The notes under the pieces: model-generated | The model's database searches: none | Seen by the model: the letters and a program-made list of their open reading frames with translations, nothing else | Told to the model about the DNA's origin: nothing | Shown here: in pieces, positions 24,382 to 61,456 of the stretch | Numbering within the stretch: the first letter of the stretch is position 1 | How the letters are laid out: each line of letters opens with the position of its first letter | Assembly (NCBI GenBank): GCA_009924895.1 | Contig: RFQR01000003.1 | Location: forward strand, 1,066-65,065 | DNA length: 64,000 nucleotides | Direction of reading: 5' to 3' | Source: a bacterium | GTDB lineage: Bacteria > Patescibacteriota > Minisyncoccia > Phycocordibacterales > UBA2100 | Made by a program: the position numbers and the translations under genes

Positions 24382-24468
24382 ACTCCTCCTCAGACGGTAA
24401 CAACTCCTCCGCCGACACCGGGAGAGACACCTCTCACCTTACAGACTATCGTACCTGAAAAAAGAAAG

Positions 24469-30923: not shown

Positions 30924-31955
30924 TTATCGGGCAAATGGGTTGCGGGGACCGTTACGGACCTCAAAGTGAAGGTGGGGGCCCGTTGAGCGACCGGTGTTGC
31001 CTACATAACCAATCACCTGACCCTGTACGACATTTTCACCAACACCAACGACAATTCGCGACTGGTGCGCATAGAGGGTCTGCGAGCCGTTGTCATGCTG
31101 GATGACTACGTAGTTGCCATACCCACCATTCCATCCACCTTGGCGCGCAACGATGACTTCACCATCTGCTGAAGCCATAATTGGCGTACCTATCGAATTA
31201 CCCATGTCAACGCCGTTAAAGCCGTGCAATCCCTGTGTCAGAGTATAGCGTGCAAGCGGCGCCGCATAGTAAGCGTTTTCCGCAAGAGTCCCAATAGGAC
31301 CTACGTCATGTGGTGTATTTGTTCTCGGTTTCTGGGGCTTTGCGGGGCGCGTTACGACTGGTATCGGCACTTCCGCATCGGGAATGGTAATCACTTTTCC
31401 TGGGGTGAGCACCTCGCCAAGCTCGTTGTAATTCACGATTTCATCAGCATCTGCCTTAAATGTCTTTGCAATTGATGCGATGGTATCACCTTTTTTCACC
31501 GTGTACGTGATACCTGAAACTGGTAATATAGTGAGTGTATCACCCACCTTGAGCGGCGCCCCCGGCGCAAGGTTATTTGCCCATCGAATCGTATTTACAC
31601 TGACATCAAAGAGCTTTGCGATTCCTGAAATAGTGTCTCCCTGCTTCACAACGTAGATACTGATTTGTGAGTTGCGCGGTCGTTCGAGATCGGCAACGGT
31701 CCCGACCGGACCTTCGTCAGGAACGAGCGCCGAATCGCCCACAATCGTTAAATCACCCCCGCCTTGGGCTGGCGAAGGGTCAATGTTACTTGCAGGGCGC
31801 GCAAGAGGCATGGTTTGCACGGTTTCGGTGCGACTTTGCGGCTGATTTTTGAGCCCGAGAGAGGTCAAAATGTCTGAAATCACACCCGCATGAACAGACG
31901 CAGGGAGGAAGCTCCCGATGAGAAGAAGGGCAGAGATGAGTGGAGCACTACGCAC
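30924..31955 (-). CDS. Secreted LysM-LysM-M23 peptidase
   Basis: Signal peptide; two LysM repeats (YVVKQGDTISGIAKLF; YTVKKGDTIASIAKTF); M23 motifs (HGFNGVDMG...GNYVVIQHDNGSQTLYAH...GNTGRSTGPHLHFE). Confidence 0.85.
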   Translation of the reverse strand: MRSAPLISALLLIGSFLPASVHAGVISDILTSLGLKNQPQSRTETVQTMPLARPASNIDPSPAQGGGDLTIVGDSALVPDEGPVGTVADLERPRNSQISIYVVKQGDTISGIAKLFDVSVNTIRWANNLAPGAPLKVGDTLTILPVSGITYTVKKGDTIASIAKTFKADADEIVNYNELGEVLTPGKVITIPDAEVPIPVVTRPAKPQKPRTNTPHDVGPIGTLAENAYYAAPLARYTLTQGLHGFNGVDMGNSIGTPIMASADGEVIVARQGGWNGGYGNYVVIQHDNGSQTLYAHQSRIVVGVGENVVQGQVIGYVGNTGRSTGPHLHFEVRNGPRNPFAR

Positions 31956-32232: not shown

Positions 32233-35200
32233 ATGGGGTATACTGCCCCCATGTCAGACCATCTTCAGGCCCTCAACAGCGCCCAAAGGCAAGCGGCTGA
32301 ACATCTCCACGGCCCCCTCCTTATCGTCGCCGGGGCGGGGGCGGGAAAAACGAAAACCGTCACGCATCGCATAGCAAATCTCATTGCACACGGGGTGCCA
32401 GGCCACTCTATACTTGCCCTAACCTTTACGAACAAGGCCGCGGGGGAGATGAAGGAGCGCGTATACAAACTCCTTACTGGTACGGGGGGTGGCGTACCCT
32501 TTGTCGCAACATTCCATACTCTCGGGGTACGCCTTTTACGTGAATTCCATGTTGAAGCCCGGGTCCCCAAGCATTTCAGTATCTGGGATCGTGATGACTC
32601 GCTCCGTGCCACGAAGCGTATCTTGAAAGAGATGGGGGACGAAAAGAGCGCTCCTCGTACCATTTTTGGCGCACTGTCGAAGGCGAAGGGTCTTGGGAAA
32701 ACGATTCAAGAATACCGGGACGAGAGCTCGAGCTACTTTCGAGACCAAGTTGTACGAGTATGGGAGAAATACGAAACGACATTACATGAAGAAGGCGCAC
32801 TTGATTTTGAGGATTTACTTGTTCGCACCCGAAACCTCTTGCGCGACAACACCCATGTGCGCTCCCTCCTCAATCACCGCTGGCAATTTATCACGATCGA
32901 TGAGTATCAGGATACCAACGCAATCCAGTATGATATTGCTCGTCTTCTGGCCGGAGAAAAGATGAATTTGTGTGTCGTGGGCGACGTGGATCAATGCCTC
33001 GTTGAGGGTACACCAGTAACCATGGCAGACCAGACTCTAAAAAATATTGAGGAGATAAAAAGAGGCGACTGGGTCTTATCAAATTACGGACAGGGTTCTT
33101 TGCGTCCGGCACAGGTGCTCTCTACTCGAGCGCATACGACAAAAAAAATTGTGCGCATCACGTTTCAGAACGGAGATCACCTTGAAAGTACGCCGGAACA
33201 TATTCATTTTGCCGGTTATAAACTAGGATTGACTACTCAAACATATTTTACGTATCTCATGCACAAAAGAGGAAAGGGTTTCCGCCTTGGAGTATCCCAG
33301 GTATACACTCGGGGACAGAAACAAGCAGTGGTTGGATTTGTGCAACGATGCAACCAGGAGCATGCAGACGGTGTGTGGATTATTGAAACCCACAACAGCA
33401 TCCAAAAAGCGCGCGTTGCTGAGTATGTGCTGTCGCTCAAATACAAGATTCCTACACTACCTTTTGTTGCACGCAAAGGTGGAAGTACGAATGGATATGT
33501 ACATGACCAAACCGTTCTTGACGAGGTATTTGAACGCCTCGAAACCGAGAGCGCAGGAGAAGCACTCTTACACGATGCCGGATTATACAAAGAGTTTCCT
33601 CATCACGCGCCACGCTCTCGCGCTAGTAGCCGCAGGAATATGGTTATAACATTGTGCGCGAGTTCTCGCGGTAAAACGCCAATGCACACTATTTCGATAG
33701 TTGGTAACGATGCACAAGGAAAAAAAGATTTATTGGCACTTGGGTTTTCAGTGCGTCCTGCAAAAAAAGGTTCAGAAAGCTGGCGGTTTGAAACCGCGCA
33801 CGCGTCTTTTGACGACGTCATGTCTCGAGTCCAAAAAGTACTGTCCTTATGGCCAGATGCTCACATCATTAAAACTGCTCGACTTGGCGGCAAGAAGGAC
33901 AAACCTAAAGACGGTAATTCACTACCCTTTACTCCCGCATCTTCGGTACGCGCCGGTATGGTGCTCTTTAGAGCTGATGGAGGATATGAAACGGTACAGA
34001 GCGTTGAGACGATAGAAGCAAAACGATCGGTGTACGATCTCAACATCACCCCCACACACAACTTTATCGCGCACGGCATCGTGACCCATAACTGTATTTA
34101 CTCATGGAGAAATGCTGACATTGGGAACCTGCTCTTGTTTGAAAAAACTTTTCCTGGCACCAAAACCGTAACACTTGAGGAAAACTATCGTTCAACACGC
34201 ACCATTCTTGCCGCAGCAAACGGTGTGATAGAAAAAAATGTGCGACGAGTGCCAAAAAAACTCTTCACCCACAACGATACCGGCGAAGCAATTGTGGTCT
34301 ACGGGGCAGGGGACGAGACCGGAGAGGCTTTGTTTGTTGCAGGAGAAGCCGCGCGACTGGTGCGAGAGGGTGTGCGTCCGCACTCCATCGCCGTTCTCTA
34401 CCGTCAAAATTTTCAATCGCGCGCACTTGAAGAAGCCTTTTTACGTCTCAGGCTTCCATATCATGTTCTGGGGACACGCTTCTTCGAACGAGCAGAGGTA
34501 AAAGACGTGCTTTCATATCTGCGTGCAGCATTAAATCCCACAAGCGTGAACGATATTTCACGTATTATCTCCTCTCCACCGCGCGGCATCGGTAAGCAAA
34601 CGCTCGAAAAAATGTTTGCAAAGCAGGAGGCCTCGCTCCCCGCTGCAGCTCGAGGAAAAATCGCTGCATTTCGCGCCTCGCTCGAGAAAGTCCGTCATGC
34701 GTGCCTCACGCTACCACCATCAGAAACGGTTCGATTTGCGATAGAGGAGAGCGGTCTTGAAAAGCACTGGAGCGGAGATGACGAAGAATCAAAAGAGCGC
34801 CTTGGTAACATGCGCGAACTGGTAAACCTTGCGACCCGCTATGACCATGAGACACCCGAGGAGGGAATCGCGCACCTCTTAGAAGAAGCGGCGCTCCAGA
34901 GCGAGCAAGATACGTTGAAAGAAGAGGGCGGCATGATATCGCTTATGACCATTCACGCCTCCAAGGGACTCGAGTTTGATGCAGTATTTGTGACGGGACT
35001 CGAACAGGGACTTTTTCCCAATGAGCCGCGCGAGGAAGACATCGATCGCGATGAAGAAGAGGAACGTAGGCTCTTTTATGTCGCACTCACCCGTGCGCGC
35101 AAACATGCGTATCTGACATATGCCCGCTCGCGCATGAAATACGGTTCCCGCGAGAGTGCATTCCCTTCAGAATTTATTGCCGATATCGATGAACGCCTTG

Positions 35201-35283
35201 TGGAGGATCGCACCCCTGTTGAAGTAAAGAAGTTTTCTGGCTTTCGAGGATTTCTTGATGACGACGAGGACATTATTCGCTGA
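32233..35283 (+). CDS. UvrD/PcrA-family DNA helicase containing an intein
   Basis: Walker A GAGAGKT, DEYQDTN, and VGDVDQ|[intein]|CIYSWRNA (motif III interrupted). The extein is ~650 aa. Confidence 0.85.
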   Translation: MGYTAPMSDHLQALNSAQRQAAEHLHGPLLIVAGAGAGKTKTVTHRIANLIAHGVPGHSILALTFTNKAAGEMKERVYKLLTGTGGGVPFVATFHTLGVRLLREFHVEARVPKHFSIWDRDDSLRATKRILKEMGDEKSAPRTIFGALSKAKGLGKTIQEYRDESSSYFRDQVVRVWEKYETTLHEEGALDFEDLLVRTRNLLRDNTHVRSLLNHRWQFITIDEYQDTNAIQYDIARLLAGEKMNLCVVGDVDQCLVEGTPVTMADQTLKNIEEIKRGDWVLSNYGQGSLRPAQVLSTRAHTTKKIVRITFQNGDHLESTPEHIHFAGYKLGLTTQTYFTYLMHKRGKGFRLGVSQVYTRGQKQAVVGFVQRCNQEHADGVWIIETHNSIQKARVAEYVLSLKYKIPTLPFVARKGGSTNGYVHDQTVLDEVFERLETESAGEALLHDAGLYKEFPHHAPRSRASSRRNMVITLCASSRGKTPMHTISIVGNDAQGKKDLLALGFSVRPAKKGSESWRFETAHASFDDVMSRVQKVLSLWPDAHIIKTARLGGKKDKPKDGNSLPFTPASSVRAGMVLFRADGGYETVQSVETIEAKRSVYDLNITPTHNFIAHGIVTHNCIYSWRNADIGNLLLFEKTFPGTKTVTLEENYRSTRTILAAANGVIEKNVRRVPKKLFTHNDTGEAIVVYGAGDETGEALFVAGEAARLVREGVRPHSIAVLYRQNFQSRALEEAFLRLRLPYHVLGTRFFERAEVKDVLSYLRAALNPTSVNDISRIISSPPRGIGKQTLEKMFAKQEASLPAAARGKIAAFRASLEKVRHACLTLPPSETVRFAIEESGLEKHWSGDDEESKERLGNMRELVNLATRYDHETPEEGIAHLLEEAALQSEQDTLKEEGGMISLMTIHASKGLEFDAVFVTGLEQGLFPNEPREEDIDRDEEEERRLFYVALTRARKHAYLTYARSRMKYGSRESAFPSEFIADIDERLVEDRTPVEVKKFSGFRGFLDDDEDIIR
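32995..34092 (+). mobile_element. Intein (366 aa) inserted in helicase motif III of the UvrD-like gene
   Basis: Begins with Cys (CLVEGTPV, block A), has TPEH (block B), ends ...NFIAHGIVTHN, and is followed by Cys+1. The central domain is presumably endonuclease-like. Confidence 0.75.
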
Positions 35284-37126: not shown

Positions 37127-37945
37127 ATGTTCTCCACTCAGGCATGGGCGGTTTCGATTGCTGTTATTCTTGCGCTTGGCGCGCTCGTCGTTGCACGCCA
37201 CCAGCCGAGAGTGGTGGGTGAGGGATCGGTATGGACCACTGAAGCCATTGTCGAACCTTCGCTTGAACGCCGGTTTGCATCGCAACAGATTCAAGGCGAA
37301 ACACTCACCGCTCAAGACCTTCCCCTTGTCACGTTACGTAGCGCAGAAGTGCCTCCTCTTACGGAGCAATCCGGCGCCGCACAGACAAATCCTGCAAATG
37401 TGGCAGGGGAGAGCATTCTCAGCTCAATAGTTGCCGCGCTACCTCATGGCACTCTGACATTAGACTCTCCGCCGCAGGCTGAAAAACGCAGCTCCTACCA
37501 GCAAAACCTTTACGACTATGGCAATGCCGCTGGTCGAATTATTGAAGCATATCAGGCCGAATACCAGGCGCGGCAAGTCCCGATTATGCGAGATTTTTAT
37601 GCAGACAGACAAAACCTTGAGAAGCAGGCGGCGGTGCAAAAAATGGCGAAGGCTCTCGAAGAGGTAGGAGACTCTTTACGCGCACTGGATTCTGTTCCGT
37701 CAGGTACGCTCATCACTCACCAAAAACTCGCGCGTGATTATGTGAGTGTCGGTCAAAATCTTGCCACGCTCTCTCGAAGCGCCACCGATCAATCGCTTTT
37801 GGAATCAATTTCTACGTACAACACGAGTGTCGAATCGCTTATCAAAGACTATGTCGCGCTTGCCGACATGTTTTCACTTGCACAAGTAACGTTTTCGAAC
37901 GACGACCCCGGTCGCGTATTTGTCTTCACAAGTGCGTCGCTGTAG
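37127..37945 (+). CDS. Membrane-anchored hypothetical protein
   Basis: N-terminal TM; the start was moved to the ATG at 37127 to avoid overlap with the LTD gene. Confidence 0.4.
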   Translation: MFSTQAWAVSIAVILALGALVVARHQPRVVGEGSVWTTEAIVEPSLERRFASQQIQGETLTAQDLPLVTLRSAEVPPLTEQSGAAQTNPANVAGESILSSIVAALPHGTLTLDSPPQAEKRSSYQQNLYDYGNAAGRIIEAYQAEYQARQVPIMRDFYADRQNLEKQAAVQKMAKALEEVGDSLRALDSVPSGTLITHQKLARDYVSVGQNLATLSRSATDQSLLESISTYNTSVESLIKDYVALADMFSLAQVTFSNDDPGRVFVFTSASL

Positions 37946-37993
37946 TACACACTTTTTTCATACACCTGCCGCTGGGCGCGGTATACTGAAGAG

Positions 37994-38809
37994 GTGAATT
38001 CATTTCGTTCCGCACTCGGTCGTGGGCGCTTTTTGATTAGCGCGGGGTTTTCGCTCTGTCTTGTTCTCGGTACGCTTTTCTATGTTGCACACACCAAGGA
38101 AATCGCTCAGCCACATTTCAGTCGAGTTACCGAAGTCGCGACCTCGACTGCATCTGGAGCAGAAAAACCAAAGTGGCAACAATACCTCCTCTCGCAAGCT
38201 TCAAGCCCTCCGCGCGCATCGGATGATGTGATTCTCTCGGGCGCAAGCGATGCGCTGACCGAACGCGTTTCGCAGCTGTACACCGTCATGCAGAAAGGGG
38301 GACTGTATACGCCCGAAAATCTAAGCCAGGTAGGAGCAACCGTCGCCGATACCATGAAATTGGAACCGACCTTTGACCGAATAACACGCGCCGAGCTTAC
38401 TATCGACCCTGATTCTTCATACGATCGCATGCTCACGTATCGCGCTGATATGCGCGTTGCGCTCGAGCCGCTTCTTACAAACAAAGAGCCCGAATTTGAG
38501 GTGTTTGCTCGATATCTCGAGACCAAAAATGAAATATATCTTGAACAGCTTGCAACTACTGCTGCAAACTACACGCGGGCAGCACGTCAGGCGCGCGCGG
38601 TTCCCGTTCCTGTTGACGCAGCTGAGGCACATGTCCGGACGATAAACTCACTCTCACTCTTTGCAACAACACTGACCCACATGAGCAAGCACGGCGCAGA
38701 CCCCGTTGCTTCTCTCATGCTCTTACGTGCATACAACGATGCTGAACAGGAAGTCTTTTCTGCATTCAACGAACTCGCACTGTATTACCGAAACAAAAAA
38801 CACGTATGA
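37994..38809 (+). CDS. Membrane-anchored hypothetical protein
   Basis: N-terminal TM (FLISAGFSLCLVLGTLFYV). Confidence 0.4.
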   Translation: MNSFRSALGRGRFLISAGFSLCLVLGTLFYVAHTKEIAQPHFSRVTEVATSTASGAEKPKWQQYLLSQASSPPRASDDVILSGASDALTERVSQLYTVMQKGGLYTPENLSQVGATVADTMKLEPTFDRITRAELTIDPDSSYDRMLTYRADMRVALEPLLTNKEPEFEVFARYLETKNEIYLEQLATTAANYTRAARQARAVPVPVDAAEAHVRTINSLSLFATTLTHMSKHGADPVASLMLLRAYNDAEQEVFSAFNELALYYRNKKHV

Positions 38810-40326
38810 AGCGCGCCTTTCTCGTTCTTATACTCGTACCCTTTTTTGCATCGGCCCAAAGTACGGGAGGTCCGAGCGCCCTCCTTACCCAGCCAGGCGG
38901 GCTTGGGAACTGCAGCCGCACCGGAGCGTACTCGATGAGTGTGGGTGCGTTTTCTGCAATCGGTGGTGTCTATGTGCCCGTAAACGATGCCGCAGTAACT
39001 CTCAACACCGGATATTTGGTCTACAAGGAATGTATCTTGCGTCCTGCGGTCAACAAGCAGCGCGAGGCGATAACTGCAGAAATGGTAGGAAAAGCGGCGA
39101 AAAGAATCCTAAACGGCAGAGACGGTGGGGCATACTACCTGCAGCGCTTTGATGAAGCAACCAAAATGGCAAACAAAGCGGCAGCAAGAGCGTTTGAAAT
39201 TATTCAACCTCAGGTAAAGCCTGAGGTTTTGCGCGCATCAGCGAAGCGGTACGTGGATAGCCAAAAGGTAAATCTTGAGTGTCCGAAAAAAGCAACCGCA
39301 CAATCGTCTGCATGGCAGAGCCTTGCGAATTTGCGAGATGAGCGCTGTGACGAGTACCGCGCCTCGCTAGCAGTTCGCTCGTATGTCGAAACGCAGGTCG
39401 CACTTGCCCAAGAGTGTTTTTGGAAGAATTTGCAATACGGCGAAGGCTTCTATCCTGTTACCGAGGAAGACCCCGACTCAGTTTGTGAGAAAATCCTTAC
39501 ACCGGCATCGGTGGTACGTGAAAGTTTCCAAAACATCATAAGCTCTCCTACGCGCCAAGCAGAAGCGGCAAATGATGTGGGGCAACTCATTAGCCCGCTT
39601 TTTGCGAACCTCGAATCGCAGGCTATTGGATCTGAAAAAGGCCTTGAGGGTTTACTCCAGGCTGCGGGGGGATTGCCGTCGTATATCGACCGCATGATGA
39701 GAGAGTCGGCATCGGGTGCCCGGGTGAGCGCTCTCAATATCGGCATCAGTATCCTTAATGCATACCGACAAATAGAATCAGATTATCTTGCCGCAAAAAC
39801 ATCAATAAAAACTGCGATCGAAAATGCAAAAAACCAGCTCCGCTCAGCTGAAAGCCAGTGCTGGAGCACAATCATCAGCAAAGTCTGCCAGTCAAACGTT
39901 ACCTCACAAAACACCTGCACTGATGCAACCGGGACTACGCTGCGCATCGCAACCACGACTTCCGCTTCTCAGGCGGTTATTGATTCTCAGATTACTCCAA
40001 TAGTCGGACAGGTTGACAGCGACATCACCAAATCACGCTCCGCACTCGACAGACTCAACGCAATTGCTGCAGGACTTACGAGCGGAAATTCCACCACCCA
40101 AGCACAAGCACTTGCACAACTTGACGCTCTCGCGGCAACAAACAGTATTCATAATCAATATGATCTGCAGCAGGCTCGCCAGCAACGAGACGATGCCACC
40201 AATGCCCTGAGTACGTTGGTACAAGACGCTATCAAGGCATGGCAAACATCAACCGATGTAACTACGGGGTGGTGCAATGTCGATAATGCCGCCGTGATTA
40301 CGCGTTGGAAAAATCAATGGAAATGA
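38806..40326 (+). CDS. Secreted hypothetical protein (T4SS-cluster associated)
   Basis: Signal peptide MKRAFLVLILVPFFASAQS; 506 aa. Confidence 0.45.
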   Translation: MKRAFLVLILVPFFASAQSTGGPSALLTQPGGLGNCSRTGAYSMSVGAFSAIGGVYVPVNDAAVTLNTGYLVYKECILRPAVNKQREAITAEMVGKAAKRILNGRDGGAYYLQRFDEATKMANKAAARAFEIIQPQVKPEVLRASAKRYVDSQKVNLECPKKATAQSSAWQSLANLRDERCDEYRASLAVRSYVETQVALAQECFWKNLQYGEGFYPVTEEDPDSVCEKILTPASVVRESFQNIISSPTRQAEAANDVGQLISPLFANLESQAIGSEKGLEGLLQAAGGLPSYIDRMMRESASGARVSALNIGISILNAYRQIESDYLAAKTSIKTAIENAKNQLRSAESQCWSTIISKVCQSNVTSQNTCTDATGTTLRIATTTSASQAVIDSQITPIVGQVDSDITKSRSALDRLNAIAAGLTSGNSTTQAQALAQLDALAATNSIHNQYDLQQARQQRDDATNALSTLVQDAIKAWQTSTDVTTGWCNVDNAAVITRWKNQWK

Positions 40327-40328
40327 GT

Positions 40329-42692
40329 ATGAAAAGATTCATTATTTTGTTTACTTTTGTTCTCATATCGGTCTCTACATCTCTCACTTTTCCTTCACAC
40401 GCAGATGCAGCCTCATGCCCTGCAGGAACAACTGCTAAACCAAAAATGGAACCTATCACGGGACTAACAATGGTCGACGGCTGCTACAGAGGTGACAAAC
40501 TGGTAGGCTATGCTGGTTTCAATTCATATGTACAAATTGAACCAATCTCATGCAAGGGTACGTATAACTACTCAAAGAACCTTCCCGATTGTATTTTACG
40601 GAGTTTTTCTGTTTGGGCTGGCACTACGCTCATATCAGCTTCTGCTTTTCTGCTCACTATAACTGGTCTTTTATTCAACCTAGTTATCACGAAAACTATA
40701 GCGCTCTTTAGCACCACACTTGCCACTACGGGGGCGCAATCGTTTATAAATGTGGCTTGGACGATTTTCCGCGATATTGCAAACATTCTTATCGTCGGCA
40801 TATTTATCTACCTCGCAATTATGATTATTGCAGGTCAAAACTCGCGTGGCAAAAAACAATACATAGCACATGTGATTGTCGTTGCTACACTCATAAACTT
40901 TAGCCTCCTTTTTTCGGTCACCATTGTCAAAGTTGGAAACGCCGTTGCTACCACAATTTATCCCGCTCTTACCGGCGAACCTGTTGCATCACTCCAAAAG
41001 GATGGCTGGGGTGGAGGAGTTGGTTTTGGTATAACAACCAACGATCCTCGGGCATTTCCGAGAGATGGTGTCGCTGGCAGTTTCATAAAAATGCTTGGTA
41101 TTACGGGTCTTTCGGACACAAAAGAGATGCTTGATGAAGTAGCCGAAACAAACGACAGCGCATCTCTTCCTATACTTCACGGTCTCTTTGCTGCAACAGT
41201 GCTTCTCTTTGCTAGTGCTGTATTTTTATTCGCGAGCTTGCTTTTAGTAGTCCGTGTTGTCATACTTCTTTTTCTGATGATACTCGGCCCGATTGCTTTT
41301 GCCGCTTTTTTGATTCCGAACTATTCAGACAAATTTCTTTTATGGTGGCGCAATCTTATCCAATACTCACTGATTGCCCCGGTATTGTTTCTTCTTCTTT
41401 TAGTCACTAAGCAAATGGCAACAGCAGTAACAGCAGGCTCCGGTGGCGGGACGCTTGGGGGAGCGTTGGGCAAACCGGGCGAATACACTAATATTGTTGC
41501 ATTCCTAAACTATTTCCTTGTCGTCGGCATGCTGGTTCTAACCGTATATCTTACGATCAGGTTTGCGCAGGTGGTCGCGGGAGGAAATTGGGCGGCAGCT
41601 CTCACCCTGCTTCCTATCACAGGAACTGCGCTTGGCGCCGCTGCGGTTCTGCGCAATTGGCGCGGTGCAAGAGCATATCGTGAAATCAATCAACGAAATA
41701 CCGAGATCGAAGCTACAAAGATGGACCGTAGCTTGACGAGTGAAGCGCGGATCGAAAAACTGAGAAGTCTCATGGAAATGCGTGACAAGGCAACGCTCCG
41801 CTCAGGAAAGGAATACAACGCAATGAATGCAAAAGTATTTGGTCGCTCAATTGGCGATAGGATCGGCGGTTTGGTGGGAACTGTGCCTAAACCATTGTCA
41901 AGAGTTATCACTGGTACAACCGAGGGTGGTGGTTACGCGGGCCGTGTAAAAACCGCTGTCAAAGAAGGTGAGGGCGAGTTCAAGGATCTTGGATACTCAG
42001 GCGCAGAACAAGAGAAATTCATCACGAATTTGCAAAAAGAAACAGCACAACAAAAGGAAACCGTTGAGAATAGTCGCAGGGCTGCCAAAGAACTTGCGGA
42101 CGAGACTCGTGATTCACTGCAAAGCGCTCGAGACGAGGCGAAGACCGCAGCGACTATAGAGATGAATCCGCTAACGAAACGTCAACAAATAGAAGTAAAA
42201 AAGCAAGTAGACACCTTGAAAGACAAGCCCGCGGACGAACGAGAAACCGCAATGAGCGGCATGAGAGAAAGGATAAGAAAAGCGGTTCGGGCAAGCCTTA
42301 AATATCATGATGCTGAAACTGAACTTAAACTCCATGATCGTGATGTTAATACCTCAATGCGGCGCTTTGATGCAACGAGCGCGCGGCTCGATGCGCAGTT
42401 ACAAGAACAGCGCCAAGAAGGACTCACTCAACTGCAAGGATACGCTCAGGCGCTGGGTAATCAGATTGCAAGCAAAGTCGGGGACGATGTGGGCAAGGCT
42501 ATTGCCAAGAACGTCGGGATTAGCGACTCTTTGAAACAGTTCAAAAAAGAGCTTGAGAAGTTGCCGAAGGCAGTTACCTCAGCACAACAGCGCGCCACTC
42601 GCTTAGATCGCCGAGCAAGTACGCTTGAAGCCCGAACTGGCCTGCGCTCTCCTGGTCCCACCGACGGCACGTTCCCGCCTCCTCGCGCCTAA
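40329..42692 (+). CDS. Polytopic membrane protein, VirB6/TrbL-like T4SS component with a C-terminal coiled coil
   Basis: Signal/TM start, then many TM helices, then a long charged C-terminal tail. Start at MKRFIILF, just after the upstream stop. Confidence 0.5.
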   Translation: MKRFIILFTFVLISVSTSLTFPSHADAASCPAGTTAKPKMEPITGLTMVDGCYRGDKLVGYAGFNSYVQIEPISCKGTYNYSKNLPDCILRSFSVWAGTTLISASAFLLTITGLLFNLVITKTIALFSTTLATTGAQSFINVAWTIFRDIANILIVGIFIYLAIMIIAGQNSRGKKQYIAHVIVVATLINFSLLFSVTIVKVGNAVATTIYPALTGEPVASLQKDGWGGGVGFGITTNDPRAFPRDGVAGSFIKMLGITGLSDTKEMLDEVAETNDSASLPILHGLFAATVLLFASAVFLFASLLLVVRVVILLFLMILGPIAFAAFLIPNYSDKFLLWWRNLIQYSLIAPVLFLLLLVTKQMATAVTAGSGGGTLGGALGKPGEYTNIVAFLNYFLVVGMLVLTVYLTIRFAQVVAGGNWAAALTLLPITGTALGAAAVLRNWRGARAYREINQRNTEIEATKMDRSLTSEARIEKLRSLMEMRDKATLRSGKEYNAMNAKVFGRSIGDRIGGLVGTVPKPLSRVITGTTEGGGYAGRVKTAVKEGEGEFKDLGYSGAEQEKFITNLQKETAQQKETVENSRRAAKELADETRDSLQSARDEAKTAATIEMNPLTKRQQIEVKKQVDTLKDKPADERETAMSGMRERIRKAVRASLKYHDAETELKLHDRDVNTSMRRFDATSARLDAQLQEQRQEGLTQLQGYAQALGNQIASKVGDDVGKAIAKNVGISDSLKQFKKELEKLPKAVTSAQQRATRLDRRASTLEARTGLRSPGPTDGTFPPPRA

Positions 42693-42698
42693 CACGGT

Positions 42699-43271
42699 AT
42701 GAACACTCCTTCATCTCAACAAGATATCGTTGCCCTGCTCCACGAACGCTTTAGTGCGCTACCGCAAGTGGTGCAAGATGCGATTCGGTCCTCGGATATT
42801 GAACATCAGTTACAGGGCCTTGCTCGTACACACAAACTGCACCTTGATCAATGGGAGCTCTTGGAAAACGAAGTGTTACTTGCTCTCCTTGGCGTAACCT
42901 CGGCGGGAGATCTTCAGAGCGCAATCCAATCAAAAACGGGCATAGATACAGATTCTGCCAAAGCTCTTACCAGTGATATTTCCGCGGCTATTTTTGAACC
43001 AATTCGAGCCGAGTTGGAACGCGACCTCGATCACCCGAGCGCAGTAGAAAAACAGGAAACTGCGGTAGAACAAGTGCGCACCGAGCTCCTTGCAGAATCT
43101 AAACGTGACGCTTCGGTATTGTTGCCAGCACCAAAAGCACCTGCCGTTGCCCCGACCACGCCACCACCTCCTAAACCCGAAACAAAAGCGGTACGTGAGA
43201 TAGTGCCGTCGGTAGAAATCTCGTCTCCTAAAAAGATCGCTATAAACGACCCCTACCGCGAACAGGTGTAG
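42699..43271 (+). CDS. Hypothetical protein
   Basis: 190 aa, Pro-rich C-terminus. Confidence 0.35.
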   Translation: MNTPSSQQDIVALLHERFSALPQVVQDAIRSSDIEHQLQGLARTHKLHLDQWELLENEVLLALLGVTSAGDLQSAIQSKTGIDTDSAKALTSDISAAIFEPIRAELERDLDHPSAVEKQETAVEQVRTELLAESKRDASVLLPAPKAPAVAPTTPPPPKPETKAVREIVPSVEISSPKKIAINDPYREQV

Positions 43272-43314
43272 AAAACTCGAAAGCCACTTCTTCAAAAGAG
43301 CTATACTGTAGAGA

Positions 43315-43815
43315 ATGCAGTTTCAAGTACCGCAATTTATTGAGGTCGAGGATAAGATTTTTGGTCCTCTCACCTTTAAGCAGTTTGTCTACGTCCTCGG
43401 TGGACTCGGATGCGCCTATCTTGCGTATCGCATGCTGCCCCTTTACGCTGCTGCGCCGTTTATGCTCTTAGGCGCGGCGGCAGGCGGAGCACTCGCTTTT
43501 ATGGAATACAATGGGCGGCCTCTCATACTTGCGCTTGAGCATGGTTTTTTCTTTTTGATTCGCTCGAAGCTGTACCTCTGGAACAACACCCGCCAGTTGC
43601 CGGTACGCGCTCCGACGAAAGACGCGACACCGCAGCCCCTGCCGTATGTTCCTCGTTTGTCGGAGAGTAGGCTGCATGAACTCTCGTGGAGCCTTGATAT
43701 AAAAGAGCGCATCAGTGATGGCGTTGCGACCCAAAAAGATCGCACACAGAACACTAATTCTTTGAGCACCATCGTCGCGCCCGTGCGCACTGCGCGAGAA
43801 AGTCTGATACGATGA
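43315..43815 (+). CDS. PrgI-family (VirB3-like) T4SS membrane protein
   Basis: MQFQVPQFIEVEDKIFGPLTFKQFVYVLGG... is the PrgI-like N-terminus, with two TM helices. Confidence 0.6.
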   Translation: MQFQVPQFIEVEDKIFGPLTFKQFVYVLGGLGCAYLAYRMLPLYAAAPFMLLGAAAGGALAFMEYNGRPLILALEHGFFFLIRSKLYLWNNTRQLPVRAPTKDATPQPLPYVPRLSESRLHELSWSLDIKERISDGVATQKDRTQNTNSLSTIVAPVRTARESLIR

Positions 43816-43822
43816 CCCTCGT

Positions 43823-44467
43823 ATGCCACCAACTACACGCGCGGCCACCAATGCAACACAGGATTTCGTACCCATACAAGAGGTGCGCGACGGTATCGTA
43901 GTCCTCAAGGACGGAAGCTACCGCGCGATTCTCCTTGCCTCGTCAATCAATTTTGCCTTGAAATCAGAAGACGAACAGACCGCATTTATCGTGCAGTTTC
44001 AGAGCTTTCTCAACTCCCTTGATTTTTCATGTGAGATTTTCGTCCAGTCGCGCATGCTCGACATTCGCCCCTATCTTGCAACCCTCGAAGCGCAGTACAA
44101 AAAGCAGCTCGATGATTTGATGCGCATTCAGATTCGCGAATACATCGGCTTTGTCAAAAGCTTTACCGAAGCGGCAAGTATTATGTCGAAAAACTTTTTT
44201 GTCGTCGTCCCATATGCACCGAATGTTATTGAAACAAAAAAAGGCGGGCTCTTTTCTTTTGGCTCGACCTCCGCGTCGGTGACAAAAGATCGTTCATTTG
44301 AGGAACACCTCTCGCAGCTCGAACAGCGCATCTCAATCGTACAGCAGGGCCTCGCGCGCACCGGGGTACGCACCGTACAGCTCGGAACGGAAGAGGCGAT
44401 TGAGTTGTTCTATAAATTATTTAATCCAGGGGAAGACAGTAAGCCAATGTCCTTGACTAACAGGTAG
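43823..44467 (+). CDS. VirB4/TrsE N-terminal-region-like protein, encoded as a separate ORF
   Basis: DFVPIQEVRDGIVVLKDGSYRAILLASSINFALKSEDEQ...FLNSLDF resembles the N-terminal domain of Gram-positive VirB4/TrsE ATPases. It sits 50 nt upstream of the VirB4 gene, in a different frame. Confidence 0.45.
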   Translation: MPPTTRAATNATQDFVPIQEVRDGIVVLKDGSYRAILLASSINFALKSEDEQTAFIVQFQSFLNSLDFSCEIFVQSRMLDIRPYLATLEAQYKKQLDDLMRIQIREYIGFVKSFTEAASIMSKNFFVVVPYAPNVIETKKGGLFSFGSTSASVTKDRSFEEHLSQLEQRISIVQQGLARTGVRTVQLGTEEAIELFYKLFNPGEDSKPMSLTNR

Positions 44468-44517
44468 GCGTTACCGTGCCATCGGGGCGGTTTTTTGCGG
44501 TATACTTTTTCTAACGT

Positions 44518-46350
44518 ATGGGTCTTTTTGATTTTATTGCGCCAAAAAAAGAAGTCGCATCGGTGCGGCCTGTGCTTCCTGACGACATCTATCAGAGCGG
44601 TACTCTCGAGCTGCAAGATGTTATCGCGCCGCACGCGCTCAAAATAAATCCGCGCGAACTGGATTTGGGCGAGCGTATTGCGCGTACTTTTTTCGTGATC
44701 TCCTATCCACGCTTTCTCACGACAGGTTGGTTCGCCCCCATCATCAACATGGACAAAGTCATTGACGTGGCGATTTATATACACCCCCTCAATTCGAACG
44801 ACATGCTGCGTAAGTTTCAAAAAAAAGTAGCAGAAGTTCAGAGTCAAATCTCGCAGCGAGAAGAGAAGGGGATGGTGCGCGATCCGTTACTCGATACCGC
44901 ATACCAAGACATAGAGCATCTGCGCGACCAGCTGCAGCAGGCACAAGAGCGTATTTTTGATGTTGGCCTCTATATCACCATCTATGGCAATACCCGCGAG
45001 GAGCTTGATAAGGTGGAGTCCGAGGTGCGCTCTATTCTTGAATCGCGACTCATTTACATTCGTCCGGCGCTTTTTCAGCAAGAACAAGGCTTTCGTTCCG
45101 TATTACCGCTGTGCTCCGACGAGCTTGAGGTCCACACCAAATTGAACTCGCAGCCGCTCTCGTCGATTTTTCCTTTTATCTCGTTTGACCTTACCTCTGA
45201 TCGCGGTATTCTCTACGGCGTCAATCGCCACAACTCATCACTCATTCTCTTTGACCGTTTCTCGCTCGAAAACTATAACTCCGTTACGTTTGCGAAATCT
45301 GGTAGCGGAAAAAGCTATACAACAAAGCTCGAGATACTTCGATCGCTGATGTTTGATGCCGAAGTAATTGTGATTGACCCCGAGCGCGAATATGAATATC
45401 TCGCAGAGACCGTGGGTGGTCGCTACTTTAACATCTCGCTCTCCTCGGAGCACCATATCAATCCGTTTGACTTACCAATCCCGCGTGAAGATGAGAATCC
45501 CACTGATGTTCTGCGCAATAACATCATTACGCTTGTCGGACTCTTCCGTATCATGCTCGGCGGTCTTACCCCCGAAGAAGATGCAATTATTGATAAAGCA
45601 ATTACCGAGACGTATGCGCTTAAGGACATTACTCCCGATGCAAACTTTGCACAGGTAGAGCCTCCGCTTCTCTCAGACTTTGAACTCGTGCTCTCAGGCA
45701 TGGAAGGATCTGATTCTCTCGTGCAGCGTCTTTCAAAATACACGAAAGGCACCTGGTCGGGCTTTATGAATCGACCGACGAACGTCGACATGAACAAAAA
45801 GCTCGTTGTTTTTTCCGTACGCGACATGGAAGACGACTTGAAGCCCGTTGCAATGTACATTATTACGCATCATATCTGGACTGTGGTGCGCAAAGAGCTG
45901 CGCAAGCGCCTCTTGGTAATTGATGAGGCGTGGTGGATGATGAAGTCGGAAGATACTGCATCCTTCTTGTTCGGTATCATAAAGCGCGGCCGTAAATACT
46001 ATCTCGGCGTTTCTACGATTACGCAAGACGTGTCTGACTTTTTAAACTCTCCCTACGGAGTACCAATGATTACGAACTCCTCGATTCAGCTGCTCTTGCG
46101 TCAGTCGCCGACATCGGTCGACCTCGTGCAACAAACGTTTAAACTTTCAGATGAAGAGAAATACCTGCTTCTCGAGTCTGATGTAGGGGAGGGAATCTTT
46201 TTTGCCGGCCTCAAACATGTTGCGATTAAAGTCATCGCGAGCTATACTGAGGACCAAATTATTACCTCTGATCCATCGCAAATTTTGGCAATTAAAAAGG
46301 CAAAACAAGATCTTGCGGCACAGCAGGAAGCCAGCGCTCCCGCGGTATGA
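44518..46350 (+). CDS. VirB4-family T4SS ATPase
   Basis: Walker A FAKSGSGKSYTTK, Walker B LLVIDEAWWMM, and the CagE/TrbE/VirB region at the N-terminus. Confidence 0.85.
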   Translation: MGLFDFIAPKKEVASVRPVLPDDIYQSGTLELQDVIAPHALKINPRELDLGERIARTFFVISYPRFLTTGWFAPIINMDKVIDVAIYIHPLNSNDMLRKFQKKVAEVQSQISQREEKGMVRDPLLDTAYQDIEHLRDQLQQAQERIFDVGLYITIYGNTREELDKVESEVRSILESRLIYIRPALFQQEQGFRSVLPLCSDELEVHTKLNSQPLSSIFPFISFDLTSDRGILYGVNRHNSSLILFDRFSLENYNSVTFAKSGSGKSYTTKLEILRSLMFDAEVIVIDPEREYEYLAETVGGRYFNISLSSEHHINPFDLPIPREDENPTDVLRNNIITLVGLFRIMLGGLTPEEDAIIDKAITETYALKDITPDANFAQVEPPLLSDFELVLSGMEGSDSLVQRLSKYTKGTWSGFMNRPTNVDMNKKLVVFSVRDMEDDLKPVAMYIITHHIWTVVRKELRKRLLVIDEAWWMMKSEDTASFLFGIIKRGRKYYLGVSTITQDVSDFLNSPYGVPMITNSSIQLLLRQSPTSVDLVQQTFKLSDEEKYLLLESDVGEGIFFAGLKHVAIKVIASYTEDQIITSDPSQILAIKKAKQDLAAQQEASAPAV

Positions 46351-47312
46351 GATTTTTGATTATTGTGCTTCTCTTGAGCGCGAGCCCTCTCTACGCACAA
46401 ACGTTCCAAGCCCCGCTTGAGCCGTCATTCTCCCTCAGTCCTTCCATCGTTACCCCCGGTGCTACGGTCCTGATTACTCTTAAAAATGTAGAAAACGCAC
46501 GGACTACCATGGTGCGCTGGTTTCGAGATGGAGTGCTTGTGGGCAGCGGGATCGGCATGACTGATATGCAAATAACCGCAAGCAATGCAGGCATAACATC
46601 AGTCGTCCAGGCGCAGCTTGAGAGTGGTGAGTCCGCAGAAATTCGCATACAACCTACATCGGTCGATCTTCTCTGGAGCGCTGATTCCTATGTTGCCCCC
46701 TTTTTTAAGGGAAGAGCACTTGCGGGGGCGGGGAGTGTCCTCCGATTTGAGGCGCTGCCTCACCTCTATCGTGACGGCGCCGCGCTTCCCGTTTCCGATC
46801 TCTTTTTTGTGTGGAAGGTAGACGGCGCCACGAAAAAGAATCTCTCGGGACGGGGGCGAAATACGATTGCGCTGCCCGACTCCTCGTTTCGCGTCGATGA
46901 AGTATCCGTCACCGTTGAAAATGATGATGGAACGATTCGGGGAACGGCACAGATGCGCATACCCCAGAGAGATACCGTACTCGAACTGTACCAAGAGCAT
47001 CCCCTCTTTGGCGTACTATTTCATAGTCCCATTCCCGACCAGTTTGTTACCAATAGCCGCGACATCATTGTCTTTGGAGTCCCGTGGTACGCCGGCACGG
47101 CGCAGGGAACTCGCGGGATTCAATACGAGTGGAAACTTGGTGAAAAGCAAGCACAGATTGACGAAGCCCATCCGTACCACATGTCAATTAACGCGAGCGC
47201 TCCGGTGAGTACTCAGGTCACCCTCTCAATACGCAACACCGCAACGTGGCTTGAAGACACGCGACGTACCTGGACGCTCTTTTTGGGCGAACGCGGTACA
47301 CTACTGCCATGA
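46347..47312 (+). CDS. Secreted hypothetical protein
   Basis: Signal peptide MRFLIIVLLLSASPLYAQT; overlaps the virB4 stop (ATGA). Confidence 0.45.
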   Translation: MRFLIIVLLLSASPLYAQTFQAPLEPSFSLSPSIVTPGATVLITLKNVENARTTMVRWFRDGVLVGSGIGMTDMQITASNAGITSVVQAQLESGESAEIRIQPTSVDLLWSADSYVAPFFKGRALAGAGSVLRFEALPHLYRDGAALPVSDLFFVWKVDGATKKNLSGRGRNTIALPDSSFRVDEVSVTVENDDGTIRGTAQMRIPQRDTVLELYQEHPLFGVLFHSPIPDQFVTNSRDIIVFGVPWYAGTAQGTRGIQYEWKLGEKQAQIDEAHPYHMSINASAPVSTQVTLSIRNTATWLEDTRRTWTLFLGERGTLLP

Positions 47313-48529
47313 ACCAGACAGTGCTTCGGATTGTTTCCCTTGGTGTCATGGTACTCTGCGTACTCTCACTCGCTCTGTGGTATACCGCCCTCTCGCGACA
47401 AAAAGCGACCATCACAACCCGTGATACTGCGCGGGGGTATAAAGCGGAAGAGCCGGTACCACCCATATCCCTCCTTGGCAGTACCTTCGAAAATATCTCG
47501 GCAGAAGTGGGAGCCTCGAGAGCAAGCTCCTCAGTAAAGACCCGGTCATCCCGTATTTATCGAGTAAGTCAGGCGCCTGTTGCAGGTATGGGATTCAAAA
47601 AAACAAATGAGGGGGTGCGTCTCCTTTTTGTTGAACGAGCGACCGGCCATATATTCTCAGAAAATCCTGAGACGGGTTCGATTGAGCGTATAAGTAATAT
47701 GCTTATACCTCGTATGTACGAAGCTTTGTGGAACACGAATGGCTTAGTTGCGCTTCGAGGGCTTGATGAAAATCTCGCTATCACCACCTTTGTTGCTTCA
47801 CCGGAGCGCAGTACCTCAAGTGCGAGCGTACTTACGGGGCAATTTTTGCCACCAAATATCGACTCATTTGTGTGGTCGCCATCAGGAAACGATTTTGCCT
47901 ATTCACTCCTCACTGATGCCGGCACCGCAATCTATCGCGGCGCCCCCGACAAGAAACCCTCTCTTATAGCAAGTTCGGGTGTGCGGGACTGGGGGCTTTT
48001 GTGGAGCGATCGTATTCTCGCACTTCAACGACCTGCAGCGAACACAAACGGCGCACTCTACTCACTCGGCGCGGGGGTATGGGAAAAACTGCTTGAAGCA
48101 CCGGCGCTCTCGATAACAGCGGAAACAGACGGGCTCGTTATAGCAAGCAGTGTCGTGGGCGGCTCTCCGTCAGCAACAATCTCATCTTCAAGCGCCGTAT
48201 CACGGCGCGCCACACTGCCTACGGTAGCAGACAAATGTGCATGGGGGTCGCTGCCAAAAACCACTGGTCGTGAAGAAAGAATTGCATACTGTGCTGTCCC
48301 CGAGTACGTATCTCGTGAATTTCCTGATTCCTGGTACCGCGGTTCAGAGCATACAACTGATACATGGTGGTCTATTGATGCCGTAACCGGCGATTCAAAA
48401 AAAATGCTGACTGACTCAGAGCTGCCGTCGTTTGATGTCATGCGGCCTCTTGTAAGTAGTGATGGTCGGTATCTTGCCTTTATGAATGCGCGTGATTTAT
48501 CGCTTTGGGTGGTAAAATTAAGCGATTAA
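47309..48529 (+). CDS. Membrane-anchored beta-propeller-like (TolB-like) protein
   Basis: N-terminal TM; a C-terminal DG..LAF repeat (SSDGRYLAF). Confidence 0.4.
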   Translation: MNQTVLRIVSLGVMVLCVLSLALWYTALSRQKATITTRDTARGYKAEEPVPPISLLGSTFENISAEVGASRASSSVKTRSSRIYRVSQAPVAGMGFKKTNEGVRLLFVERATGHIFSENPETGSIERISNMLIPRMYEALWNTNGLVALRGLDENLAITTFVASPERSTSSASVLTGQFLPPNIDSFVWSPSGNDFAYSLLTDAGTAIYRGAPDKKPSLIASSGVRDWGLLWSDRILALQRPAANTNGALYSLGAGVWEKLLEAPALSITAETDGLVIASSVVGGSPSATISSSSAVSRRATLPTVADKCAWGSLPKTTGREERIAYCAVPEYVSREFPDSWYRGSEHTTDTWWSIDAVTGDSKKMLTDSELPSFDVMRPLVSSDGRYLAFMNARDLSLWVVKLSD

Positions 48530-48531
48530 GT

Positions 48532-48897
48532 ATGTACCCGCCACCAAACCCTCTGGGAGTACAAGCGGTAAACAATGCAACCGACTTCATAGGAAAGTCT
48601 TTCGATTTTGGTAGCGGCTCAATTCCCGATATTCTTCAGGCATTTTTCTATATGGCGCTCTCAGTCGGCGCGATTCTCGCAGTGATTCGCATTTCGTGGG
48701 CGGGATATCTCTATGTCACGGGGGACATAAAGCCTGAGAACAAATCAAAAGCAAAAGAGGTACTTCAAGATGCAATACTAGGACTTATTATCTTGCTTTC
48801 GGTATGGGCGGTACTCAACACTATAAATCCCGACATCTTAAATAAAGATCCGTTTCGGAGCCTCAAAAGCATGAGCTCGGGTACCGCAGCGCCGTAA
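48532..48897 (+). CDS. TrbC/VirB2-family pilin
   Basis: LQAFFYMALSVGAILAVIRISWAGYLYVTGD...ILGLIILLSVWAVL are the two hydrophobic helices typical of VirB2 pilins. Confidence 0.6.
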   Translation: MYPPPNPLGVQAVNNATDFIGKSFDFGSGSIPDILQAFFYMALSVGAILAVIRISWAGYLYVTGDIKPENKSKAKEVLQDAILGLIILLSVWAVLNTINPDILNKDPFRSLKSMSSGTAAP

Positions 48898-48902
48898 AGA
48901 TG

Positions 48903-49361
48903 TTAGATGATATATTTGATAACGACTCGTCGATCGCGCCCTTCACCGCGCGATTCTGTTTTAATACCGGGTACGCCTTGCAGGGTGGAGTGAATGATGA
49001 GTCGCTCATATGCCGTCATAGGACTGAGTTCCACATCATATTTAAAGGCCTTCGCTCGCTCTGCCATCATGCGAGCCTTATCCTGGAGTTCTTTGATAAG
49101 CTCCGCACGATATCCCGCCACATCAATAAGCGCCATGCGCTCCTCTGAGACGCTCCCAAGAGGGGACTGCGCTTCGGCTATTTTCTTTACTACGTGATCA
49201 AGGGCGCGAATAGACTCGCCACGCTGTGCTTTCCAGGGAGTTGCGTCCTCAACGTCTATAGTAACAATGGCTTGCCCTGCGATTTCTCCGGTAGTGATGC
49301 CTTTATGGGTTACGCCAAGTGACTGAAGGAGGTCCGAAATAATAGGTGTCAAATCTTTCAT
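48903..49361 (-). CDS. jag: Jag/SpoIIIJ-associated KH-R3H RNA-binding protein
   Basis: An R3H domain, ERLIIHSTLQGVPGIKTESRGEGRDRRVVI, downstream of yidC. Confidence 0.8.
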   Translation of the reverse strand: MKDLTPIISDLLQSLGVTHKGITTGEIAGQAIVTIDVEDATPWKAQRGESIRALDHVVKKIAEAQSPLGSVSEERMALIDVAGYRAELIKELQDKARMMAERAKAFKYDVELSPMTAYERLIIHSTLQGVPGIKTESRGEGRDRRVVIKYII

Positions 49362-56377: not shown

Positions 56378-56698
56378 TCAAAAACACACATGGACTTTTT
56401 GAAGAAGCTTTTGCAGGGCATTGCTTGTGAGCGAGTCGATAGTTTTTCCCATCGTTACTTTTTCTGCACTAAACATATTTTGAAGACTGATGTGCGACTC
56501 TTTTATCATTTTTTGTCGCGTGAGCTCACTGTTGAGTAGGGGCAATGAGTTCATTGTTTTTTTTCCATACACACCAAGGAGAATCACGTTTTTGTGATGA
56601 TTGTAGCGATTATTTGAAATGACGACTGCGGGCCTGAGTTTTTTCTCAGATAGATCAGAAAAAGGAAATGCTACGGTGATAATATCGCCCTGCTTCAT
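56378..56698 (-). CDS. mazF: MazF/PemK-family endoribonuclease toxin
   Basis: KQGDIITVAFPFSDLSEKKLRPAVVIS. Confidence 0.75.
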   Translation of the reverse strand: MKQGDIITVAFPFSDLSEKKLRPAVVISNNRYNHHKNVILLGVYGKKTMNSLPLLNSELTRQKMIKESHISLQNMFSAEKVTMGKTIDSLTSNALQKLLQKVHVCF

Positions 56699-56931
56699 GA
56701 AAAATCAAAAAGACTATCGTGTATGGGGTCAGACCAGTCTCGCATGGTGGCGTCAAGAAGTTGCGCATGTTCTCTGTCAGCGCTTTGTGTGAGAGGCTGA
56801 ATGAGAACCACGCCGTTTTGTTCGGTAAATTGCACCGCTCGTGCGCCCGCAAATGCCGGAGAGCGCCGAATTGACTGGGGGAGAGTCACTTGCCCTCGCT
56901 CAGTGACTTTGCTTATTAGTACATTATTCAT
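56695..56931 (-). CDS. mazE: MazE/AbrB-family antitoxin
   Basis: SKVTERGQVTLPQSIRR, the SpoVT/AbrB swapped-hairpin motif. It overlaps mazF by 4 nt. Start chosen at MNNVLISKV. Confidence 0.65.
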   Translation of the reverse strand: MNNVLISKVTERGQVTLPQSIRRSPAFAGARAVQFTEQNGVVLIQPLTQSADREHAQLLDATMRDWSDPIHDSLFDFS

Positions 56932-61427: not shown

Positions 61428-61456
61428 AGTGGTTATTGTAGCGTATCGAACGTACA

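Follow-up and report, generated by a model that had tools for sequence, protein, structure and literature searches.

The closest described relatives of the locus considered here are the chromosomal type IV secretion systems (T4SSs) of the Patescibacteria, a kind of system already described for this radiation in 2023 and 2025. In a survey by Quinonero-Coronel and colleagues (2025; PMC12102498), the VirB4 proteins of Patescibacteria formed a monophyletic clade nested in MPF_FATA, TrsD was the most frequent VirB4 partner, and PrgI/VirB3, VirB6, and VirB2-like pilins of the PF18895 family were encoded near virB4. Relaxases were found in just 103 of 3,035 Patescibacteria genomes, and the T4SS of Paceibacteria was located close to dnaA, dnaN, rnpA, ksgA, and rpmH. 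Using transposon sequencing, Wang and colleagues (2023; PMC10633639) found that the cluster SEML1_0006–0019 of Ca. Southlakia epibionticum ML1, which is without recognizable coupling or relaxase proteins, is essential for growth on the host. A 2025 review (PMC12857230) regards the Patescibacteria systems as a new branch within the superfamily of T4SSs, and a preprint (bioRxiv 10.64898/2026.06.21.733656) reports tubular structures at the parasite–host interface that were interpreted as possible T4SS pili. Here, we examine a T4SS-like gene cluster in a 64,000-nucleotide stretch of a Patescibacteria genome (assembly GCA_009924895.1, contig RFQR01000003.1, positions 1,066 to 65,065), hereafter the window; all positions below are window positions.

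We consider it very likely that this cluster is a chromosomal, relaxase-less T4SS of the Patescibacteria (candidate phyla radiation) in its Paceibacteria/Kaiserbacteria form, one that would interact with a host rather than conjugate. What it has in common with the published clade is a VirB4 with an adjacent TrsD, a PrgI/VirB3-like protein, a VirB6-like protein, and a PF18895 pilin, the lack of a relaxase or type IV coupling protein in the cluster, and a chromosomal, origin-proximal position beside dnaA, dnaN, rnpA, and ksgA. An earlier note, made from the sequence alone, had described a minimal, Gram-positive-type, non-conjugative T4SS-like locus, and this description agrees with the published Patescibacteria systems (PMC12102498, PMC10633639, PMC12857230). 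It had also placed nine open reading frames (ORFs) contiguously on the plus strand at 38806–48897; all nine are there, with neighbors overlapping or lying no more than 50 nt apart, and their coordinates match those called independently on a public contig of identical sequence. These calls refined the starts of the VirB6-like gene (40317), the pilin gene (48532), and an upstream 272-aa gene (37127). The start of the block needs revision: it lies probably two genes earlier, at about 37127, because the 272- and 271-aa genes are co-directional, co-occur with the gene for a 506-aa protein, and run into that gene with a 4-nt overlap. At the other end, the strongest terminator-like site between 35300 and 50600 is a hairpin of 8 pairs, 5 of them G–C, with a T-rich tail (48932–48955), and this may be the end of the operon. 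A promoter scan returned fewer sites than were found in shuffled sequences and was uninformative, and an Rfam scan of the window gave four tRNAs only, none of them within the cluster.

The signature motor of the cluster, a 610-aa VirB4-family ATPase, matched the NCBIfam model NF045971 (VirB4-like conjugal transfer ATPase, CD1110 family) with 366.9 bits against a cut-off of 325, covering positions 179–733 of the 752-position model. In Pfam, it matched PF19044 (E = 3e-24) and the set P-loop_TraG, AAA_10, and DUF87. Both ATPase motifs are intact, the P-loop AKSGSGKS at residues 259–266 (window 45292–45315) and the Walker B motif LLVIDE at residue 465 (window 45910). The 214-aa protein encoded immediately before it matches positions 2–119 of the CD1110 model and the corresponding N-terminal stretch of another NCBIfam VirB4 model (E-values of 1.4e-10 and 3.1e-7). 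It has a precomputed PF26593 TraC-like match, and its score against the NCBIfam TrsD/TraD model (E = 9e-6, 25.6 bits) is below the curated cut-off of 200; a single-sequence search of PDB sequences with it gave nothing useful. Taken together, the 214- and 610-aa proteins make up one full VirB4, and the earlier note had read the smaller one as an N-terminal fragment. We compared the window proteins by tblastn and ORF-level blastp with 80 species-level Patescibacteria loci, and in all 78 that have both genes TrsD and VirB4 are separate ORFs, fused in none, with all three relative reading frames occurring. For this reason the "fragment" is, to judge from its relatives, a conserved stand-alone TrsD-like gene and no frameshifted piece. 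A pseudogene reading of the split virB4 is ruled out by the two intact ORFs in 78 of 78 relatives.

The window VirB4 is 74–90% identical to the VirB4s of the 80 genomes, whose lineages, where named, are mostly of Paceibacteria type (Kaiserbacteria, Nomurabacteria, Campbellbacteria, Taylorbacteria, and Paceibacterota). The best plasmid VirB4s are 29–36% identical, and all of them are monoderm proteins of CD1110 type from Firmicutes and Actinobacteria. By its model match and these percent identities, we place the window VirB4 in the Patescibacteria clade nested in MPF_FATA. Median identities in these loci, which were selected by VirB4 similarity and should be compared with that in mind, are 77.6% for VirB4, 60% for TrsD, and 46% for PrgI; those of the housekeeping proteins DnaA, RsmA, and YidC are 55.5%, 50.4%, and 41.8%, and the Ig-like, propeller, and VirB6-like proteins reach only 26–29%. 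That VirB4 is more conserved than DnaA, RsmA, and YidC indicates strong purifying selection on the motor. The envelope parts of the machine appear to evolve fast and the motor appears strongly constrained. Gene order is fixed across the 80 loci, running uvrD, rsmA, further genes, then VirB6-like, 190-aa, PrgI, TrsD, VirB4, Ig-like, propeller/pilin, jag, yidC, dnaA, and dnaN (counts in Table 1, where many absences are contigs that stop short of the gene). In all 80 species the cluster keeps its place among housekeeping genes near the origin, which indicates that it is vertically inherited and is no mobile element.

Among the membrane components, the PrgI/VirB3-like protein (PF12666, 46.5 bits against a gathering score of 27) and the VirB2-like pilin (PF18895, T4SS_pilin, 41.6 against 26.6, with two hydrophobic helices) pass their curated thresholds, as does VirB4, so these three assignments of the earlier note hold. 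Its VirB6/TrbL-like assignment fares less evenly. TrbL/VirB6 (PF04610) is the sole notable Pfam match of the 795-aa ORF, but at 18.2 bits (E = 0.0022) the window protein alone stays below the gathering score of 25.9; what supports the assignment is the family. When the window protein was pooled with 44 orthologues taken from related genomes, 9 of the 45 sequences had TrbL as their top family, more than had any other (best E = 6e-5). A database search with a profile of the membrane domain yielded 52 homologues, and three of these (P0175, P0178, and P0183; profile E-values from 4e-77 to 8e-60) exceed the TrbL gathering score themselves, with 28.7, 28.3, and 26.5 bits. We accept the protein as VirB6/TrbL-like, an assignment that is transitive and made at the family level. 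Its eight hydrophobic segments would correspond to a signal-like N-terminus and about seven transmembrane segments, with an extracytoplasmic N-domain, and they are followed by a helical tail of 326 residues in which E, K, R, D, and Q make up 39% of residues against 13% in the core. A PDB-sequence profile search with the family gave only marginal coiled-coil matches to this tail. The protein fits the "extended VirB6" type of PMC12857230.

The window has one pilin-domain ORF only, and a single pilin gene per locus is also found in 65 of the 69 pilin-bearing loci, with two in the other four. This differs from the Saccharimonadia, where an array of about six divergent pilins is present. In some distant Paceibacteria (L029, L031, L033, L049, L053, L058, L067, L072–L074, and L078), the pilin domain sits within ORFs of 300–615 aa that are extended around the domain. 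The order in these loci is Ig-like, pilin, propeller, as opposed to Ig-like, propeller, pilin in the window. Downstream of virB4, the window encodes Ig-like and beta-propeller proteins, whereas S. epibionticum has peptidase and lysozyme homologues. In the published descriptions of Patescibacteria T4SSs that we compared, neither these two proteins, nor the 190-aa protein with a DPYRE tail, nor the two upstream paralogues are named.

Outside the Patescibacteria, the nearest architecture is that of CD1110/CTn2-type MPF_FATA systems. For example, Clostridium perfringens plasmid pSXP-169_2 (NZ_CP143494.1) has, like the window, PrgI directly upstream of a CD1110-family VirB4 and no outer-membrane core genes, which is the monoderm architecture; the two VirB4s are about 31% identical. 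Its genes run MobC, relaxase, DUF3801, VirD4 (CD1115), two small genes, PrgI, VirB4, and SLT hydrolase (transglycosylase), and its VirB4 is a single protein of 783 aa, unlike the separate TrsD and ATPase of the window. Compared with this plasmid, the window is without MobC, relaxase, VirD4, and SLT hydrolase and adds the pilin, Ig-like, and propeller proteins. A small separate TrsD beside the VirB4 ATPase is also a feature of the trs system of pGO1/pSK41, the MPF_FATA subclass with TrsD (PMC12102498). Unlike the window cluster, the staphylococcal trs system is plasmid-borne and conjugative, with a relaxase and a coupling protein and without a pilin. The archaeal Ced and Helicobacter ComB systems are relaxase-independent, non-conjugative T4SS derivatives that may offer a functional analogy to the window. 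The window VirB4 gave only weak ATPase-domain matches to CedB (36.1 bits, cut-off 700) and CedD (16.1 bits, cut-off 600), and no equivalents of CedA, CedA1/2, or ComB7–10 were detected.

The surroundings of the cluster are those of a chromosomal locus near the origin. Upstream are an intein-containing uvrD/pcrA, rsmA (ksgA), and, on the opposite strand, a secreted protein whose lamin-tail domain, proposed before, is well supported (PF00932, 51 bits). Downstream, jag, yidC, rnpA, and rpmH lie on the minus strand, followed by dnaA and dnaN. The cluster is ~1.8 kb from dnaA (at 50709), and the cumulative GC skew has its minimum at about 52–54 kb; the cluster therefore adjoins the replication origin. 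In base composition it does not differ from the remainder of the window. A XerC/D-like gene some 20 kb off is the closest integrase, and no integrase or repeat boundary adjoins the cluster. In a scan of 29 ORFs from the 64-kb window, each about 260 aa or longer, we found no relaxase or Mob domain, no VirD4-type coupling protein (T4SS-DNA_transf, TraG-D_C), and no VirB11, as the earlier note had stated; nor was an oriT found in the window. One T2SSE-family ATPase is present, ~11 kb from the cluster (59736–61523, minus strand); a VirB11 reading of it is ruled out by its MshEN domain and its size of 595 aa, features by which we identify it as a PilB-type type IV pilus assembly ATPase. A LysM and M23 peptidase gene (30924–31955, minus strand) is located 11 genes upstream of virB4 on the opposite strand; LysM/M23-domain proteins were counted as VirB1-like candidates in the 2025 survey (PMC12102498). 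The whole block, 37127–48897, is transcribed towards the presumed origin, on the lagging strand and head-on to replication. It converges on jag–yidC–rnpA–rpmH, an arrangement that is kept in related loci.

Table 1. Genes and features of the T4SS block in window coordinates, with the basis for each description and the occurrence of each gene among the 80 related loci.
Feature	Position	Strand	Basis or remark	Occurrence in related loci
Membrane-anchored 272-aa protein	37127..37945	+	maximal ORF from 36938; one transmembrane-like segment	17, same position, Kaiserbacteria-level loci only
Membrane-anchored 271-aa protein	37994..38809	+	N-terminal transmembrane segment, residues 13-31	25-27
Cys-rich secreted 506-aa protein, 10 Cys	38806..40326	+	signal-peptide-like N-terminus	19-24/80
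Extended VirB6/TrbL-like polytopic membrane protein, 795 aa	40317..42692	+	TrbL PF04610 sub-threshold plus family-level support	61/80, upstream of PrgI
190-aa soluble DPYRE-tail protein	42699..43271	+	alignment; no transmembrane or signal sequence	46-60/80
PrgI/VirB3-like small membrane protein	43315..43815	+	PF12666	76-77/80, directly upstream of TrsD-VirB4
TrsD-like stand-alone VirB4 N-domain homologue, 214 aa	43823..44467	+	NCBIfam VirB4 models, PF26593	78/80
VirB4-family ATPase, 610 aa, T4SS signature motor	44518..46350	+	NF045971, PF19044	
Secreted 321-aa protein, three tandem Ig-like beta-sandwich domains	46347..47312	+	signal-like N-terminus; modeled fold	77/80
7-bladed beta-propeller, N-terminally membrane-anchored	47309..48529	+	modeled fold; presumably extracytoplasmic	68-69/80
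VirB2-like T4SS pilin, 121 aa	48532..48897	+	PF18895; maximal ORF from 48505	69/80 by HMM
Terminator-like hairpin just past the pilin stop codon	48932..48955	+	consensus match only	

A plausible course of events would be as follows. TrsD and VirB4, docked on PrgI/VirB3 and the VirB6-like channel, would drive the VirB2-like pilin to assemble into a pilus or tube. At the surface, where the host is contacted, this structure would be formed, decorated, or supported by the Ig-like, propeller, and Cys-rich proteins. The machine may then move macromolecules, either importing host material or exporting protein, with no relaxase-dependent conjugation. Several points weigh against this interpretation. 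The VirB6-like protein of the window falls short of the TrbL gathering score, and the pilin is without an obvious cleavable signal peptide. Neither a VirB8-like nor a VirB1-like component could be recognized in the block: Pfam and NCBIfam gave no match there to a VirB8-like (NTF2-fold) subunit, the structure models of the 321-aa protein (Ig-like) and the 47309–48529 protein (propeller) are neither of them NTF2 folds, and no VirB1-like cell-wall hydrolase is encoded in it. VirD4-like genes lie far from virB4 in most Patescibacteria genomes (PMC12102498), and the window covers about a tenth of the genome (631,099 bp in the longest public contig), so a relaxase or coupling protein may sit beyond it. 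The Ig-like, propeller, and Cys-rich proteins are surface proteins by prediction, and the function we suggest derives wholly from homology and from experiments in another class, the Saccharimonadia.

Four other explanations deserve consideration, and the one that survives best is a dedicated DNA or RNA import machine, comparable to Ced or ComB, that feeds a cell unable to make nucleotides. Patescibacteria are without nucleotide synthesis, and uptake of host nucleic acids through the T4SS has been proposed (PMC12102498); the 2026 preprint cited above reports host-RNA feeding as well as a monophyletic VirB4, and the secreted lamin-tail-domain protein is encoded beside the cluster. Set against this are the VirB4 scores of 36 and 16 bits where the CedB and CedD cut-offs are 700 and 600, the failure to detect CedA or ComB-type VirB7–10, and the finding of no nuclease or DNA-binding domain in the block. 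Nothing in the window sequence points to uptake specifically, and the link to uptake is a proposed one. We rate import as possible but doubtful; it is a sub-case of the host-interacting T4SS, an attractive sub-hypothesis and no true alternative to it.

It would be distinctly improbable, in our estimation, that the cluster does no more than attach the cell to a host, by an adhesive pilus or surface structure, with no translocation at all. Such a structure would suit a locus with a pilin and three to five predicted surface proteins, some with adhesion-type folds (Ig-like, propeller), with no coupling protein, and with surface-related genes that evolve fast. It does not account for the retention of an extremely conserved VirB4/TrsD motor and a VirB6-like channel, and for adhesion the genome encodes type IV pilus machinery as well (the PilB-like ATPase discussed above). 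The chances are smaller still for a working conjugation system that sends DNA to other cells with a relaxase, an oriT, and a coupling protein encoded elsewhere in the genome. The core genes are indeed of monoderm conjugative ancestry, many Patescibacteria genomes have VirD4-like genes at other sites (PMC12102498), and only about a tenth of this genome was examined. However, no relaxase, coupling protein, integrase, or repeat boundary adjoins the cluster, its fixed synteny in 80 species points to vertical inheritance, relaxases are as rare in Patescibacteria as the 2025 survey found, and in S. epibionticum the coupling-protein homologue is non-essential, whereas the T4SS genes are essential (PMC12102498). 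A decaying remnant of an integrated conjugative element is almost certainly the wrong explanation, for although virB4 is apparently split, its 214- and 610-aa ORFs lying in different frames and 50 nt apart, and the relaxase and coupling protein are missing, the two ORFs are intact in 78 of 78 species, no gene is broken, VirB4 surpasses DnaA in conservation and keeps its ATPase motifs, and two strains show no non-synonymous changes in 11 of 13 genes.

For the host-interacting T4SS that we favor, the secreted and anchored partner proteins are of particular interest. The earlier note had called the 506- and 321-aa proteins secreted and the 47309–48529 product a beta-propeller; both secreted proteins do have signal-peptide-like N-termini (that of the 506-aa protein being MKRAFLVLILVPFFASAQS), and the modeled fold of the third is a propeller. 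The Ig-like, propeller, and Cys-rich proteins are predicted to be at the cell surface. The 506-aa protein had no Pfam, NCBIfam, or PDB-sequence match, its family profile included, and Pfam scans across all members of the 506-aa, DPYRE, and propeller families gave nothing above noise. It is lineage-restricted: together with the two upstream genes and the lamin-tail-domain gene, it occurs only in the closest relatives, in about 17–27 loci. The 272- and 271-aa gene families are paralogous (hhalign probability 95.9%, E = 6e-9). The 272-aa protein has no Pfam match, and the 271-aa protein has none in Pfam or NCBIfam.

Comparison of the window with a near-identical locus (L083; 99.5–99.7% nucleotide identity over 19.8 kb and 13 genes) revealed a tract that varies between strains. 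Of 64 single-nucleotide polymorphisms (SNPs), 59 fall within 38731–42556 (binomial P about 4e-37), a stretch that takes in the VirB6-like gene together with the part encoding the N-terminal third of the 506-aa protein. The 506-aa gene has 21 SNPs and 13 amino-acid changes, and the VirB6-like gene has 31 amino-acid changes and a 37-codon indel in its N-terminal region; the other 11 of the 13 genes have zero amino-acid changes. For the two variable genes, pN/pS is 1.65 (49.5 non-synonymous against 9.5 synonymous differences). Because synonymous divergence is also about six-fold higher in the tract, it is likely that a diverged strain contributed to it by recombination and that selection there was relaxed or positive. 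Origin from a diversity-generating retroelement is ruled out, as the substitutions are not adenine-specific. We found no account of a strain-level hypervariable tract in the published Patescibacteria T4SS descriptions that we compared.

The 190-aa protein is encoded between the VirB6-like gene and PrgI, in the window and in the equivalent loci (L001–L080). In its alignment, the N-terminal helical domain is conserved, the linker is variable and rich in Pro, and the C-terminus carries DPYRE(P/Q)xx, a near-invariant motif placed 2–4 residues from the stop; transmembrane and signal sequences are both absent from the predictions. Six-frame ORFs of the 80 loci contain 68 instances of DPY[RH]E. In 64 of them the motif is no more than 4 residues from the C-terminus, and each of these ORFs occupies the VirB6–PrgI position. 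A HMMER search with the family gave 2,190 cluster representatives at E<=1e-3, and the motif stands at the C-terminal end in 110 of the best 150 matches, the others being mostly truncated or close variants. The family has no Pfam match, a profile search of PDB sequences gave nothing useful, and a literature search for "DPYRE" returned only unrelated papers among the matches listed. One idea, to which we give a small chance of being correct, would make the protein an adaptor or substrate dedicated to the Patescibacteria T4SS, with a disordered linker and a DPYRE tail that docks on the TrsD/VirB4 motor. If so, the tail would replace the missing coupling protein, and the DPYRE, Ig-like, propeller, and strain-variable VirB6-like and Cys-rich proteins would make up a Paceibacteria-specific host-contact module with its own recognition signal.

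A few further observations concern other genes of the window. The UvrD/PcrA gene (32233–35283, plus strand; 1016-aa ORF) has its intein (Hint, Intein_splicing) at about residues 252–620. Four ORFs of 288–407 aa (24265–25488, 28745–29611, 29651–30631, and 11681–12631 (+)) are without a Pfam match at E<=0.001, and three of them have none at 0.01 either. A PemK-type toxin gene and a small upstream partner lie between ruvC and yebC (20032–20585 in the gene calls of L082, the public contig identical to this stretch; about 56380–56930 of the window, minus strand) and form a probable toxin–antitoxin pair.

Few machines have been shown to be indispensable to the epibiotic life of this very large and mostly uncultivated radiation, and the T4SSs of Patescibacteria are among them. 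The window does not add a new kind of system to them; rather, it provides a clean Paceibacteria example and a list of conserved partners that are unannotated. These partners and the strain-variable tract are leads rather than findings. As such, the DPYRE-tail, Ig-like, and propeller proteins and the strain-variable VirB6-like and Cys-rich proteins are candidates for host recognition or substrate selection.

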